A DNA stretch of 64,000 bases, taken from assembly GCA_016204995.1 (NCBI GenBank), contig JACQJR010000001.1:539034-603033 (forward strand), read 5' to 3'. Position 1 is the stretch's first letter. Every line of letters begins with the position of its first letter. Below, one piece after another: positions 24,060 through 61,243 of the stretch. The position numbers and the translations under genes were made by a program. The notes beneath the pieces were generated by a model. That model saw nothing but the letters and a program-made list of their open reading frames with translations, was not told where the DNA came from and did not search any database. Source of the DNA: Candidatus Microgenomates bacterium. Lineage in GTDB: Bacteria > Patescibacteriota > Microgenomatia > UBA8517 > JACQJR01.

Positions 24060-24356
24060 ATGGAAATTAAGACCATTCCGATGGTGGAGCATTTGCCCAA
24101 TGGCAGTCAGCCGTATCCGAAACTAGATGGCATGCCGGTAGGGTCGGTGGGACACGTAGGTGAACACGCCGAACACGAACCGATTGTCAGTGGCGGTCAG
24201 ATAGTAGCGGCACCCCCAGGACATGGTGTCCAGGTTAAGACTATCCCTTCAGCAGAAGAGGTGGAAAAGAGGATGAAAGAAAAGGCCGAGGAAGGTGGCA
24301 GATGGTGGGCAGTTTTTGGAAAGAGAGAAGGATTAAAGAAAGGCAATAGGGTTTAG
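24060..24356 (+). CDS. hypothetical protein
   Basis: 98-aa ORF, Gly/His-rich, no recognisable motif. Confidence 0.25.
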   Translation: MEIKTIPMVEHLPNGSQPYPKLDGMPVGSVGHVGEHAEHEPIVSGGQIVAAPPGHGVQVKTIPSAEEVEKRMKEKAEEGGRWWAVFGKREGLKKGNRV

Positions 24357-24420
24357 GCAATAGGCACTAGAAAGGAAACTTCCTACTAATGCCTAGTTAC
24401 TATTGCCTAGTGCCTAATTA
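24347..24420. repeat. 'aggcactag/ctagtgcct' inverted-repeat element
   Basis: ggcaataggcactagaaagg...ctactaatgcctagttactattgcctagtgcctaatt; sister copy at 59022-59125. Confidence 0.65.
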
Positions 24421-27995: not shown

Positions 27996-28090
27996 CAGAT
28001 AATCAGTGATCAGAAAACTCAGAAAGCCAGAAAATCTGAATGTCTGAATTTCTGATACTCCGGTATTCCGAGTTTTCCGGTTATCTGAAT
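27996..28090. repeat. imperfect inverted-repeat element of the 'cagaa/ttctg' family
   Basis: cagataatcagtgatcagaaaactcagaaagccagaaaatctgaa...ccgagttttccggttatctgaat; terminal cagataa/ttatctg inverted. Confidence 0.7.
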
Positions 28091-32024: not shown

Positions 32025-32056
32025 AAAAAGGGGAACAATATTGTTCCCCTTTTTAT
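32025..32056. terminator. bidirectional rho-independent terminator (aaaaa-ggggaacaa-ta-ttgttcccc-ttttt)
   Basis: perfect 9-bp GC-rich stem with A5 and T5 flanks; a second hairpin ggccagg-agtcgcg-cctggcc follows at 32058-32088. Confidence 0.75.
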
Positions 32057-39148: not shown

Positions 39149-39193
39149 TGCTAGCCGTAGCTATCTTTAGTCTTTTTGTTATACTACGTTAGT

Positions 39194-40147
39194 ATGCCGG
39201 AGCTTCCAGAAGTAGAAACTATCCGCGGCGGACTTGAGAAGAAAATTGTTGGGTTGACGATTAAAAAGGTTGATATTTGTGCTCCTAAAAGCTTCATCGG
39301 CAAAGCGCAGGAAGTCCAAGGCAAGAAAGTAATTAAGGTATGGCGCAGAGCCAAAATGTTGGGAATAGATCTAACGACGGGTCCTGCCGGGGGCTCGTCC
39401 CGCCCGATGTCCTCGCTGAACGCTGCGGGCACTCGTCGGGACTCCCTCCGCCCCCGTCACCCGTCGCTTGCACTTTTGTTTCATCTGAAAATGACCGGGC
39501 AGCTGGTTTTGGATGATAGAAAGTGGAAAGTGGAAGGTGGAAGGATGGTTGGGGGACACCCCACTCCTGATATGCGGGATGCAATGCCTAATTCTCACAC
39601 GAGGGTAGTTTTTTCTTTTAGTGATGGATCCCGTCTTTATTTTAATGACCAAAGGCGTTTTGGGTGGGTGAAAGTAGTTCAGAGTTCGGAGTTAGGAGTT
39701 CAGGGTTTGTTTGAGAAATTAGGGCCGGAGCCGTTAGAAAAAGAATTTACTTGGCAGATTCTCAAGCAGAATTTATTAAAACATAAATCCACCCCGATTA
39801 AATCGGGGTTAATGGATCAACAAGTGGTGTCCGGAGTGGGGAATATTTACGCTAATGAAGCGTGTTTTAATGCTAGGATAGATCCTAGAGCTAGGAGCTT
39901 AGAGCTTAGTAACGCACAGTTTAAAAAATTGCATCAAGGTGTTGTTAAAGCCCTTCGCGACGGTATTAAACATGGTGGTTCAACCAGAGCTCATTTTGTA
40001 GACAGCGAAGGGCATCGGGGTTATTTTTTAGATTATGCCTATGTTTATGGCCGGGACGAGCATCCTTGTAAAATTTGCCAAACAGAAATTAAAAAAGTGA
40101 CTTTAGGCGGCCGCGGTACCTACTTTTGTCCCGCCTGCCAGCGCTAG
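39194..40147 (+). CDS. mutM: formamidopyrimidine-DNA glycosylase
   Basis: starts MPELPEVE (catalytic Pro2); C-terminal CKICQ...CPACQR zinc finger; carries at least three repeat-derived in-frame insertions; ORF-track start 39176. Confidence 0.85.
   Translation: MPELPEVETIRGGLEKKIVGLTIKKVDICAPKSFIGKAQEVQGKKVIKVWRRAKMLGIDLTTGPAGGSSRPMSSLNAAGTRRDSLRPRHPSLALLFHLKMTGQLVLDDRKWKVEGGRMVGGHPTPDMRDAMPNSHTRVVFSFSDGSRLYFNDQRRFGWVKVVQSSELGVQGLFEKLGPEPLEKEFTWQILKQNLLKHKSTPIKSGLMDQQVVSGVGNIYANEACFNARIDPRARSLELSNAQFKKLHQGVVKALRDGIKHGGSTRAHFVDSEGHRGYFLDYAYVYGRDEHPCKICQTEIKKVTLGGRGTYFCPACQR
39376..39465. repeat. ~90-bp GC-rich palindromic element in-frame inside fpg (termini gacgggt / acccgtc; internal gtcccg / cgggac)
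   Basis: base composition contrasts sharply with the flanking gene; encodes TTGPAGGSSRPMSSLNAAGTRRDSLRPRHPSLA; 90 bp is a multiple of 3. Confidence 0.6.
39791..39809. repeat. palindrome accccgattaaatcggggt (CCGATTNAATCGG family) inside fpg
   Basis: read directly; encodes TPIKSG. Confidence 0.8.
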
Positions 40148-40185
40148 GCGCAGTCTTGGCGGGCAGGCCTCACTGCCAATCTTAA

Positions 40186-41289
40186 ATGCTATTAAAAAAT
40201 ATCCATCTGCAAAATTTTCGCAGCTTTAATAAAGTTTCTTTTAATTTTTCTGCTACCACCACAGCTATTGTCGGTCCTAATACGGCTGGTAAAACTAATC
40301 TTCTAGAAGCAGTTTATTTATTGGCTACCGGTAAATCTTTTCGGGCCAGCCTGGAGGAAGAAATGATTCAAACTGGTACTGAATTTAGCAGGGTTAAGGG
40401 TGCGATAACCCTGCCTGCTGGCGCAGACAAGCCTGCGCAGGCAGGTAGTGAAACTTTAGAAGTAATTTTAACTCGCGGTGAAGTGGGGGGAGAAAGAGTC
40501 AACCGAAAGATGTTAAAGGTTAATAATTTAGGTAAAAGATTGGTGGATTATCAGGGGATTTTGCGGGTGGTGATTTTCGGCCCCTGGGATTTGGAATTAA
40601 TTATTGATTCACCCTCTGTCAGGCGTAAATTTTTAGACAGCGTCCTTTTGCAAGTAGACCGGGAGTATCGGAGATCAGTGATGGCCTATGAGAAGGGATT
40701 AAGATCCAGGAATAGACTCTTGGAAAGAATTAGAGAGGAAAATTTAAGCCGGTCGCAACTGCTGTTTTGGGATAAATTGCTGATCAAAAACGGCGATTAC
40801 ATCTCCCAAAAAAGGGAAGAGCTGATTGATTTTATTAATCAAACAAAACCTTTAAGTAACGAGCAATTCCAATTAATTTATGATAAAAGTGCTATTTCCG
40901 AGGGTAGACTGGCTCAATATAGCCAAGAAGAAGTGGCGGCGGCGACTACTTTAGTCGGTCCACACAGAGATAATATTATATTCCAAGTTCTAAATTCTAA
41001 GCTCCAAACTCTAAACTTAGAAGTTTATGGATCGCGCGGGGAACAGCGGATGTGCGCTTTATGGATCAAGCTAGCTGAACTGGCTTTTATTGAACAGGCC
41101 ACCGCCACACGTCCGGTCTTGCTGTTGGATGATATTTTTTCCGAGCTGGATCACGAGCATCGGGAAGTTGTGATGAATGTTGTAGGAGAGCAGCAAACAA
41201 TTCTGACTACCGCCGATCCGCATATGATTAGCGGCCTGCCTGCGCAGGCAGGTTTAAAAAATGGATTAGAGAAGATTGAATTGGGCTAG
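40186..41289 (+). CDS. recF: DNA replication and repair protein RecF
   Basis: N-terminal Walker A GPNTAGKTNLLEA; C-terminal ABC signature and LLLDDIFSELD Walker B; contains two copies of the palindrome cctgc(c)tgcgcaggcagg. Confidence 0.85.
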   Translation: MLLKNIHLQNFRSFNKVSFNFSATTTAIVGPNTAGKTNLLEAVYLLATGKSFRASLEEEMIQTGTEFSRVKGAITLPAGADKPAQAGSETLEVILTRGEVGGERVNRKMLKVNNLGKRLVDYQGILRVVIFGPWDLELIIDSPSVRRKFLDSVLLQVDREYRRSVMAYEKGLRSRNRLLERIREENLSRSQLLFWDKLLIKNGDYISQKREELIDFINQTKPLSNEQFQLIYDKSAISEGRLAQYSQEEVAAATTLVGPHRDNIIFQVLNSKLQTLNLEVYGSRGEQRMCALWIKLAELAFIEQATATRPVLLLDDIFSELDHEHREVVMNVVGEQQTILTTADPHMISGLPAQAGLKNGLEKIELG

Positions 41290-59021: not shown

Positions 59022-59125
59022 GGCACTAGGCAATAGGCAAAGCTTGACTCTTCGGGTTAGATACTAGGCACTAGAAATAAGAAAAAAATTAGTGCCTAAT
59101 GCCTAGTCCCTAATGCCTAATACAT
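59022..59125. repeat. 'aggcactag/ctagtgcct' repeat element, second copy, running into the trxB start codon
   Basis: gtaaggcactaggcaataggcaaagc...tactaggcactagaaataag...ttagtgcctaatgcctagtccctaatgcctaat. Confidence 0.65.
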
Positions 59126-60782: not shown

Positions 60783-61193
60783 TTAGGATTTTTTAATTAC
60801 TACATATCCCGTCCCAGTTAGCATAATTGCTAATAGCCCCATCACCCACAAGGGGAATCCTGTTTTTGGTAGTTGGCTGACCGGCGATGGTTTGGGGGTA
60901 GCAGTGGCTTTGGGGCTGGCCCCGATTTTATCGGGGCTGGTAGTCGGTAAAGTAAAGCCCGGATAAGGAGTTGGTTTAACAGTAGAAGTTGGCAAAGGAT
61001 AGAAAGTAGGAGTGGGTTTGACAGTGGAAGATTTAGTGGCATTTTGCCACAAAGCAATTAAAACCACAATAATAACTAAAACTACCAGGGCGCCAAGAGC
61101 GATAGAGGCAATGTTGCCAAAGCGGGGAGAGAGGGAAGGTAATTTGGATCGGTCAAAGCCCTCAAACATATTTTGAGGCAGAGGTAGAGTCAA
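60783..61193 (-). CDS. Pro/Thr-rich surface protein with C-terminal LPXTG-type sorting signal
   Basis: 136 aa; N-terminal TM; C-terminus ...QLPKTGFPLWVMGLLAIMLTGTGYVVIKKS = LPKTG + hydrophobic helix + basic tail. Confidence 0.55.
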   Translation of the reverse strand: MTLPLPQNMFEGFDRSKLPSLSPRFGNIASIALGALVVLVIIVVLIALWQNATKSSTVKPTPTFYPLPTSTVKPTPYPGFTLPTTSPDKIGASPKATATPKPSPVSQLPKTGFPLWVMGLLAIMLTGTGYVVIKKS

Positions 61194-61215: not shown

Positions 61216-61243
61216 GTCAAGCCCCGATCAAATCGGGGTTGAC
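61216..61243. repeat. palindrome gtcaag-ccccgatcaaatcgggg-ttgac (CCGATTNAATCGG family), intergenic
   Basis: read directly between the LPXTG-protein gene and the response regulator. Confidence 0.8.

Follow-up and report, generated by a model that had tools for sequence, protein, structure and literature searches.

The recF gene of a 64,000-nucleotide stretch of a Candidatus Microgenomates genome (hereafter the window; 41.4% GC) carries two GC-rich palindromic segments, which are probably one single and one doubled copy of a dispersed 18-bp palindrome, CCTGCCTGCGCAGGCAGG, acting as a miniature insertion element in Patescibacteria (candidate phyla radiation). Comparisons between related loci show the 18 bp entering as a block, without duplication of the target, at unrelated places in ordinary genes and in spacers, and existing copies gaining a second copy inside or adjoining them. 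The copies that survive in coding sequences are mostly read in the frame LPAQAG and, in recF, they are located in predicted loops.

The downstream recF site (site 2, Table 1) is a perfect copy of the 18-mer, which has 78% GC and is the second-longest perfect palindrome in the window. The upstream one (site 1) is an existing copy that acquired a second copy inside it. In the corresponding nested model (k = 4), the outer copy is intact but split after its base 4, into CCTG (40410-40413) and CCTGCGCAGGCAGG (40432-40445), and the inner copy (CCTGCTGGCGCAGACAAG, 40414-40431) agrees with the 18-mer in 14 of 18 positions; this leaves 4 mismatches over 36 nt, and shuffling the inner 18 nt gave an equally good fit once in 2000 trials. 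The composite folds as a 15-bp interrupted hairpin (z = -4.5). Both sites include a 16-nt direct repeat, GCCTGCGCAGGCAGGT (40431-40446 and 41238-41253), with a spacing of 807 bp (269 codons). A sequence-only reading of the window had described the perfect palindrome as occurring twice in recF. One perfect copy is indeed present, one base to the right of the position that it had been given (41235-41252 and not 41234-41251), whereas the first site is the 36-nt double, of which 40428-40445 matches the 18-mer at 16 of 18 positions, and recF holds no second perfect copy. The same reading had correctly translated both sites, that is, the site 1 peptide given in Table 1 and G-LPAQAG-L at residues 350-357, and it had rightly taken the two copies to be beyond chance: 2 matches with at most 3 mismatches were observed in the window for 0.01 expected, and none of 100 shuffles contained 2.

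Judged from an alignment of the window protein with 29 orthologs (59-70% identity) and from an AlphaFold model built from this alignment (mean predicted local distance difference test, pLDDT, 70), both segments are in-frame insertions in what are predicted to be surface loops. At site 2, the residues PAQAGL are missing in all 29 orthologs, which makes them a 6-aa insertion. The junction, AGC GG|CCTGCCTGCGCAGGCAGG|T TTA, falls within a Gly codon, and removal of the 18 bp restores Ser-Gly-Leu-Lys as found in the orthologs. At site 1, the junction is ATA AC|36 nt|T AGT and removal of the 36 nt leaves Ile-Thr-Ser; the loop varies in length among orthologs, the window RecF being about 8 residues longer than its nearest relatives. 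In the model, residues 76-87 form a turn between strands 67-75 and 88-96, and residues 349-360 a coil preceding the last strand. Three segments have a pLDDT below 50 (80-85, 354-359 and 160-169), the first two of which lie in this turn and this coil.

The host protein itself looks functional, because the Walker A, signature and Walker B columns of the alignment are intact (the invariant G30/K36/T37, S283-R288 and D315/D316 are all kept) and because it matches the SMC_N family in Pfam, together with AAA_15 and AAA_23. It is 100% identical to a single NCBI protein, annotated as RecF of Candidatus Microgenomates bacterium, and its next relatives are 65-70% identical. Further members of the palindrome family were found among the 120 best RecF homologs: an exact 18-mer at residue 227 of P0118, a 20-bp variant, CCTGCCTGCCGGCAGGCAGG, at residue 183 of P0077, and the same variant with one mismatch at residue 109 of P0087. 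Altogether, five sites in 4 of 120 RecF orthologs carry family inserts, versus one lineage among 120 cysteine desulfurases; recF may therefore tolerate inserts well, the numbers being small.

Other GC-rich inserts, unrelated to the 18-mer, occur in the RecF orthologs P0009 and P0010 (L146:1420-1490 and L148:895-975). They encode PFDKLRASQ (TTCGACAAGCTCAGGGCAAGC) and STRSARSGQAS (hairpin GCTCGCT-CAGGGCA-AGCGAGC), peptide words that recur among the translated repeats of many bacteria.

Block entry of the 18 bp, renewed hits and later erosion are best documented by a comparison of class-V aminotransferase (cysteine desulfurase) genes in Candidatus Yonathbacteria, in which empty, filled, doubled and decayed states of one site can be distinguished (Table 1, with L021 as reference). 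The filled site has the same GG|T target as site 2 of recF.

Table 1. Location of the recF insertions and of the other features discussed in the text (window positions unless a locus is named)
Feature	Position or locus	Strand	Description
recF coding sequence, host gene	40186..41289	+	367 aa; from the open reading frame list and its translation; Walker A, signature and Walker B intact
Site 1, 36-nt composite	40410..40445		CCTGCCTGC + 18 nt + GCAGGCAGG; encodes LPAGADKPAQAG, residues 76-87
Site 2, perfect 18-bp palindrome	41235..41252		CCTGCCTGCGCAGGCAGG, exact match; LPAQAG, residues 351-356
Yonathbacteria site, empty state	three relatives (e.g. L151)		81-84% protein identity to L021; ATA AAT GGT GAC
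Yonathbacteria site, filled state	L021		ATA AAC GG|18-mer|T GAC; 82% protein identity to the empty relative
Yonathbacteria site, nested double	P0122 / L150		97% identity to L021; 18-mer interrupted behind its base 7 by a second one; the nested model leaves 3 mismatches
Yonathbacteria site, decayed state	P0130		67% identity to L021; 8-residue remnant at the same codon
tRNA-Gln-linked copies	L027:1735, L037:3540, L038:6792, L042:372, L109:728		Parcubacteria-type genomes
Hairpin across the fpg stop codon and the fpg-recF spacer	40130..40168		arms GCCTGCC at 40133 and GGCAGGC at 40162, 22 nt apart
GC-rich imperfect palindrome in fpg	39375..39468	+	about 93 nt, in frame in fpg (39176-40147); about 28 residues, PAGGSSRPMSSLNAAGTRRDSLRPRHPS

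The 18-mer is widely dispersed. When representative genomes of bacteria and archaea, one for each species, were scanned for exact matches, at least 119 stretches containing it were retrieved. Among the matches listed, 70 are titled as Patescibacteria of many classes, including WWE3, Microgenomates (Woese-, Gottesman-, Beckwith- and Shapirobacteria), Paceibacteria, Saccharibacteria, and Kaiser-, Nomura-, Uhr-, Yonath-, Zambryski-, Dojka-, Magasanik- and Staskawiczbacteria; others are about 15 Bacteroidota and 10 low-GC metagenome-assembled genomes (MAGs) labelled Gammaproteobacteria. Two cultured isolates, Litoribacter ruber and Rosettibacter primus, are among the hosts listed. About 20-25 of the matches listed come from genomes of high GC content, among them Streptomyces and Burkholderiales, for which chance suffices as an explanation. 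The low-GC matches are non-random, because the calculated chance frequency of the 18-mer at 40% GC is about 1.3e-12 per position. Since the motif is widespread and both recF segments are insertions and not conserved RecF residues, the REP-like element proposed from the sequence alone (REP, repetitive extragenic palindromic) is supported in the broad sense of a dispersed repetitive palindromic element; a REP element in the strict sense does not hold for an 18-bp unit without a GTAG head and with about 58% of its copies in open reading frames (ORFs).

The flanks of the copies are unrelated, and the 18 bp are all that they have in common. No longer conserved element was found around the 18-mer in Patescibacteria, shared flanks being limited to orthologous loci or to single Bacteroidota genomes. 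The density is about 1 copy per 60-130 kb, with 2 sites in the 64-kb window. In one 598-kb contig, the three copies listed, a lower bound, lie at about 41, 151 and 344 kb and are unclustered. Judging by how often an 8-kb block contains a second copy, a genome would have roughly 5-20 copies. Over 820 kb of low-GC loci, 106 full palindromes were counted versus 21 isolated 9-nt half-sites, most of which are centre variants of the hairpin; the recurrent variants differ mainly at the centre, such as the 12-bp CCTGCCGGCAGG and the 20-bp CCTGCCTGCCGGCAGGCAGG. An unbiased 134-kb metagenome sample obtained by a protein-guided scan (relatives at 66% identity or less) contained one locus with the 20-bp variant.

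A phage source and an association with tRNA genes were both considered and rejected. The 25 matches in viral contigs are mostly in contigs of 58-67% GC, in which chance or unrelated repeats account for them. A tRNA gene is present within 500 bp of 10 of 101 copies; five of these copies represent one orthologous tRNA-Gln locus, and otherwise the association is not significant.

The 18-mer has no stop codon in any reading frame and reads alike on both strands; being six codons long, it adds just six residues to a coding sequence. Of 105 low-GC copies, 61 (about 58%) are within ORFs of at least 150 aa, where 46 are read as LPAQAG, 11 as PACAGR and 4 as CLRRQ. The intergenic-like copies (35-44 of 105) are far more numerous than predicted by the non-coding fraction of such genomes, which is roughly 10%. 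This frame bias and intergenic excess fit insertion followed by purifying selection. With few copies in the Cys/Arg-rich frames PACAGR and CLRRQ and an excess of copies between genes, insertion would be roughly random, with purifying selection filtering frames and positions afterwards. Direct repeats flanking the copies are no more frequent than in the control, and thus no target-site duplication was detected. Position -1 holds a purine in 81% of arms and position +1 a pyrimidine, which defines a unit R-CCTGCCTGCGCAGGCAGG-Y; in the intergenic-like copies, the purine is found in 29 of 35 and the pyrimidine in 23 of 35. The bases on its two sides show no covariation, so the palindrome is not simply 20 bp long.

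The hosts are 57 ORFs for mutually unrelated proteins with ordinary housekeeping roles: TopA, PolA, RecJ, a UvrD/AddA-like helicase-nuclease, UvrC, GyrB, DnaG, six aminoacyl-tRNA synthetases, GatB, TruB, TrmD, L15, L17, EF-Ts, Obg, NusB, Mur ligases, Ddl, FtsW, SOD, DHFR and others. Single copies in unrelated genes are the general pattern outside recF, and two SOD genes with an insert show extra residues there relative to homologs. The recF inserts, for their part, would be copies of a selfish or neutral element, tolerated as passengers without gene-specific function. A bias towards DNA-metabolism genes, which make up 10 of the 57 hosts (about 18%), is suggestive but not convincing, as roughly 10% of coding length is expected to belong to such genes.

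As for the mechanism, the most speculative step of the proposal is that a folded single strand could be inserted by a conserved trans-acting, hairpin-specific nuclease/ligase, perhaps resembling an HUH/Y1 transposase. This would be favoured over a DDE transposase because there is no target-site duplication, because the element has the form of a hairpin and because its sequence is identical across very distant lineages. Trans-acting mobilization by HUH/Y1-like enzymes has been proposed for REP elements and REP-associated tyrosine transposases (RAYTs). A bolder statement, put forward tentatively and more open to doubt than to belief, is that R-CCTGCCTGCGCAGGCAGG-Y is a superphylum-wide 'nano-element' that is still active today and is smaller than any other self-contained dispersed insertion unit known from bacteria, either written into DNA, without target duplication, by a hairpin-specific enzyme conserved throughout Patescibacteria or spread among them horizontally, its letter-perfect conservation reflecting recognition by that machinery. 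A stronger alternative would be a previously unrecognised functional DNA or RNA signal that spreads by insertion.

Several observations weigh against an insertion element. Neither a mobilising enzyme nor a donor copy or an intermediate of transposition was found, no search having been aimed at RAYTs. The proposed mobility is read from the distribution of the copies and from one graded series; this series spans 97% to 67% protein identity, so very recent movement is not demonstrated, and a precise empty allele with identical flanks was absent from the metagenome search at the Yonathbacteria site. At site 1 of recF, the outer, split copy is perfect and the inner copy has all 4 changes, which is the reverse of what simple recent nesting would lead one to expect. 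The number of copies per genome is itself an estimate obtained from 8-kb blocks. Furthermore, the 18 bp are letter-perfect over anciently diverged lineages, an uncommon trait in a neutral selfish element; the consensus of REPs drifts between species. A functional site, or frequent horizontal transfer, would account for such conservation at least equally well. Finally, five Parcubacteria genomes keep the exact 18-mer at the same spot in a tRNA-Gln-like 5' fragment, arranged as TGCCGGGTCG|18-mer|TCTAATGGTAGGAC and located 27-385 nt from an intact tRNA-Gln gene, whereas the flanks have diverged. The conservation at this locus looks like selection on the sequence there.

The rival explanation that benefits most from these points, although we consider it unlikely, is a functional signal under selection, either a protein-binding site, an option that the sequence-only reading had also named, for a dimeric DNA-binding protein conserved across Patescibacteria and serving chromosome organisation or regulation in the manner of parS, matS or Noc, or a hairpin for RNA processing or termination, the copies in genes being sites placed in tolerant loops. 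The exact conservation of the 18 bp and of the R/Y flank over very distant lineages, the copy kept at the tRNA-Gln locus, a low copy number (roughly 5-20 per genome by the above estimate) closer to that of parS- or matS-type sites than to that of REPs or uptake sequences, and the terminator-like use in Bacteroidota, where the hairpin follows a conserved repeat of about 70 nt and precedes a T-run, all speak for it. The copies, however, originate as 18-bp block insertions and not by point mutation, and the sites decay to unrecognisable remnants (P0130) and are absent in close relatives, so individual sites are dispensable. Nor is there the clustering of an origin-linked site: the copies are scattered along the 598-kb contig, and the recF region is not origin-proximal, there being no dnaA or dnaN next to recF and no skew switch. 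The recF copies also lack a T-run, a terminator call in the scan and any Rfam match.

Very unlikely is the excision footprint of a larger cut-and-paste element with inverted ends beginning CCTGCCTGC, 9 bases of each end being joined head to head. A perfect 9 + 9 nt palindrome without target duplication is what two retained inverted ends would leave, and the variants do differ chiefly at the centre (CCTGCCGGCAGG, CCTGCCTGCCGGCAGGCAGG); yet no longer element with these ends was found in the 820 kb of low-GC loci, where full palindromes far outnumber half-sites (106 versus 21, mostly centre variants), and bacterial insertion sequences are not known to leave end footprints of 9 nt.

More improbable still is a switch specific to recF, a possibility raised by the sequence-only reading as a hotspot for recombination or phase variation, in which recombination between the 16-nt repeats or the palindromes would delete or invert 807 bp in frame. 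The identical repeats exist, at a spacing of exactly 269 codons, and two family members in one 1.1-kb gene are somewhat unexpected if there are few copies per genome. However, the element is found elsewhere as single copies in unrelated genes; the other RecF orthologs with the element have one copy each, at different positions; and the deletion of 269 codons would remove the signature and Walker B motifs. According to Pfam, no transposase or recombinase gene adjoins recF, which is preceded by fpg and followed by a DUF5654 gene and then by Fic and ATP-dependent ligase genes, and no alternative assembly form is present in the protein database, which holds one identical protein and then only relatives at 65-70% identity. 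Chance similarity, a selected peptide motif or a sequencing or assembly artefact can be set aside almost entirely: the 20-25 or so listed matches in high-GC genomes are expected by chance, but only 0.01 was expected in the window, the identity is at the nucleotide level without synonymous variation, and the frame bias, the series of empty, filled, double and decayed sites and the presence in independent assemblies from many laboratories and in two cultured isolates are at odds with an artefact.

Among known systems, the closest analogues of the 18-mer are the Rickettsia palindromic elements (RPEs) and the GC clusters of mitochondria. Like the 18-mer, RPEs are dispersed palindromic repeats found in spacers and in frame in housekeeping genes of reduced, AT-rich bacterial genomes; the recF insertions, the 61 of 105 copies in ORFs and the empty and filled sites reproduce this pattern. 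RPEs are 100-150 bp long (PMC1779305). They differ in being imperfect palindromes that form lineage-specific families (RPE-1 to RPE-8) restricted to Rickettsiales, whereas the 18-mer is 18 bp long (36 bp when doubled), perfect, identical across a superphylum and hosted by Microgenomates and other Patescibacteria. The mitochondrial GC clusters of yeast and the double-hairpin elements of Allomyces are also GC-rich palindromes in AT-rich genomes, sporadically present in relatives and occasionally located in frame, to which correspond the 78% GC unit in a window of 41% GC, its presence or absence at given sites and its nested doubles. The yeast clusters (GC42; M, G and V classes) are 30-50 bp long with a putative AG target duplication, and mitochondrial GC clusters are mobile, spread horizontally and merge into composite clusters (PMC4478555). 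This merging mirrors the nested doubles of the 18-mer. The clusters are, however, organellar, putatively duplicate their target and have species-specific sequences, unlike the bacterial 18-mer, which shows no duplication and is invariant between phylum-level lineages. The nearest known system in size is that of the Neurospora PstI palindromes. These are said to have been described by Yin et al. in 1981 as perfect 18-bp palindromes with the core CCCTGCAGTACTGCAGGG that flank tRNA genes.

The 18-mer lacks the defining features of the other systems compared. REP/REPIN-RAYT systems resemble it as short hairpin-forming repeats without target-site duplication that occur as doublets and for which a trans-acting hairpin-recognising enzyme is the favoured model. 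REPs are extragenic, imperfect palindromes of 20-40 nt; they have a conserved head of the GTAG type, number in the hundreds per genome and differ in consensus from species to species. The 18-mer, in contrast, has no head motif, is perfect, has flanks with nothing in common except R at -1 and Y at +1, and combines a location in ORFs for about 58% of low-GC copies with low copy number and invariant sequence. Miniature inverted-repeat transposable elements, which depend on a DDE transposase, have terminal inverted repeats and target-site duplications and are 50-500 bp long, whereas the 18-mer is 18 bp long and without duplication. The DNA uptake sequences of Neisseria, the uptake signal sequences of Pasteurellaceae and the 20-bp dRS3 repeats of Neisseria are likewise short conserved words in coding regions, with preferred frames and inverted pairs, and a dependence on DNA uptake is presumed for Patescibacteria. 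Whereas uptake sequences occur about once per kb as non-palindromic 9-12-mers, far more often single than in inverted pairs, half-sites of the 18-mer are rare (21 versus 106 full palindromes) and its density is about 1 per 60-130 kb. Sites of the parS type have another sequence (consensus TGTTNCACGTGAAACA) and cluster at the origin, while the 18-mer copies are spread over the 598-kb contig. An intrinsic terminator, that is, a hairpin and a T-run at a gene end, is recognisable in the Bacteroidota copies only, those of recF being internal to the ORF. In the searchable literature, which is not proof of absence, there was no paper containing the 18-mer or dealing with palindromic in-frame inserts in Patescibacteria.

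If the palindrome is indeed a miniature insertion element, it would be a bacterial counterpart of mitochondrial GC clusters and RPEs, reduced to 18 bp and unchanged across an uncultured radiation, and some of the peculiar short inserts rich in Pro, Ala, Gly and Gln in proteins of Patescibacteria would find their explanation in it. It would also provide an easily searchable marker of insertion and decay dynamics in genomes of bacteria that cannot be cultured, and it would pose the mechanistic question of what places a perfect 18-bp hairpin between a purine and a pyrimidine without target duplication. For annotation and structure prediction, segments of the 'LPAQAG' type would be passenger loops and not conserved motifs. 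For recF itself, the outcome is deflationary, since the gene looks intact and the palindromes would be no recF-specific device.

The surroundings of some copies deserve mention. In the Sphingobacteriales MAG bin43 (L012, L033, L071, L076, L082, L101), the 18-mer is embedded in larger repeats; in four of these copies, a conserved sequence of about 70 nt ending in CGTTAACGACGGTAGCGG is followed by the 18-mer and then by a T-run, which resembles the terminator of a repeated small unit. At the tRNA-Gln-linked copy of L038, the 18-mer interrupts an apparent second, damaged tRNA-Gln copy, for which ARAGORN makes no call. The perfect 18-mers at L013:2636, L019:4544, L123:7426 and L139:2877 are flanked by partial or diverged copies (e.g. 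CCTGCCTGTGCG...18-mer...CGCAGACAGG), and a right-arm variant, GCAGACAGG, recurs in L150, in L234 and in site 1 of the window; these self-flanked copies and the recurring arm hint at a sister family or at repeated self-targeting.

The window contains other hairpins close to recF. The sequence-only reading had pointed to a related segment just upstream of the gene. Its two arms do exist, across the fpg stop codon (Table 1), but they are not assignable to the family: the fold is no better than that of shuffles (z = -0.9), and the left arm is the native coding sequence of the Cys-Pro-Ala-Cys (CPAC) zinc finger of Fpg, for which orthologs use other codons. Pairs of CCTGCC and GGCAGG at most 60 nt apart number only three in the whole window, all within 40134-41252. 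This hairpin could be a diverged relative of the 18-mer family or an unrelated terminator-like hairpin. Further upstream, fpg has its own insert of about 93 nt, whose 28 or so residues have no counterpart in three Fpg orthologs; its folded form is a long hairpin (z = -2.9, none of 200 shuffles being as stable), no further copy of it was found in the window or in loci L001-L152, and the Pfam Fapy_DNA_glyco match on the window Fpg is spread out, with 158 aa across 116 profile positions. The same genome thus seems to tolerate larger hairpin inserts in housekeeping genes, that of fpg being RPE-like in size. The Fpg encoded at L145:501-1451, in the genome of RecF P0077, has an Arg/Pro/Gly-rich insertion of about 45 residues in its zinc-finger region, which includes GSPACRQGRN, a string resembling the frame-0 reading of the palindrome family.

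GC-rich perfect hairpins are in general more abundant in the window than in codon-block shuffles (13 versus 3.5). A second palindrome family, CCCCGAT-N3-ATCGGGG, has three copies for 0 expected (39792-39808, 60920-60936 and 61222-61238); the copy in fpg is no insertion, since it aligns residue by residue with orthologs (STPIKSG versus STKIKPL), and it seems to have arisen in place, unlike the 18-mer. Another recurrent GC-rich palindrome, (T)CCGCCAGCTGGCGG(A), was seen in seven places of unrelated loci (L066:2080, L081:1716 and 7274, L096:7451, L104:4963, L106:5739 and L111:5471); 5 of the 7 copies are read as PPAGG in the longest open frame, these frames having just 66-335 codons. Its recurrence points to the presence, in such genomes, of several palindrome families that have a similar density. 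Long imperfect inverted repeats made of degenerate short periodic units (CAGATAACCAGGATACTCGGAAAACTCGG...) are found at 1337-1448, 28013-28077, 24341-24416, 641-701 and 59057-59113 of the window, and several intergenic 18-mers in loci of other Patescibacteria (e.g. L001, L025, L054, L080) are flanked by periodic sequence of the same style. The longest perfect palindrome of the window, the 30-bp AAAAAGGGGAACAATATTGTTCCCCTTTTT at 32025-32054, looks like a bidirectional intrinsic terminator.

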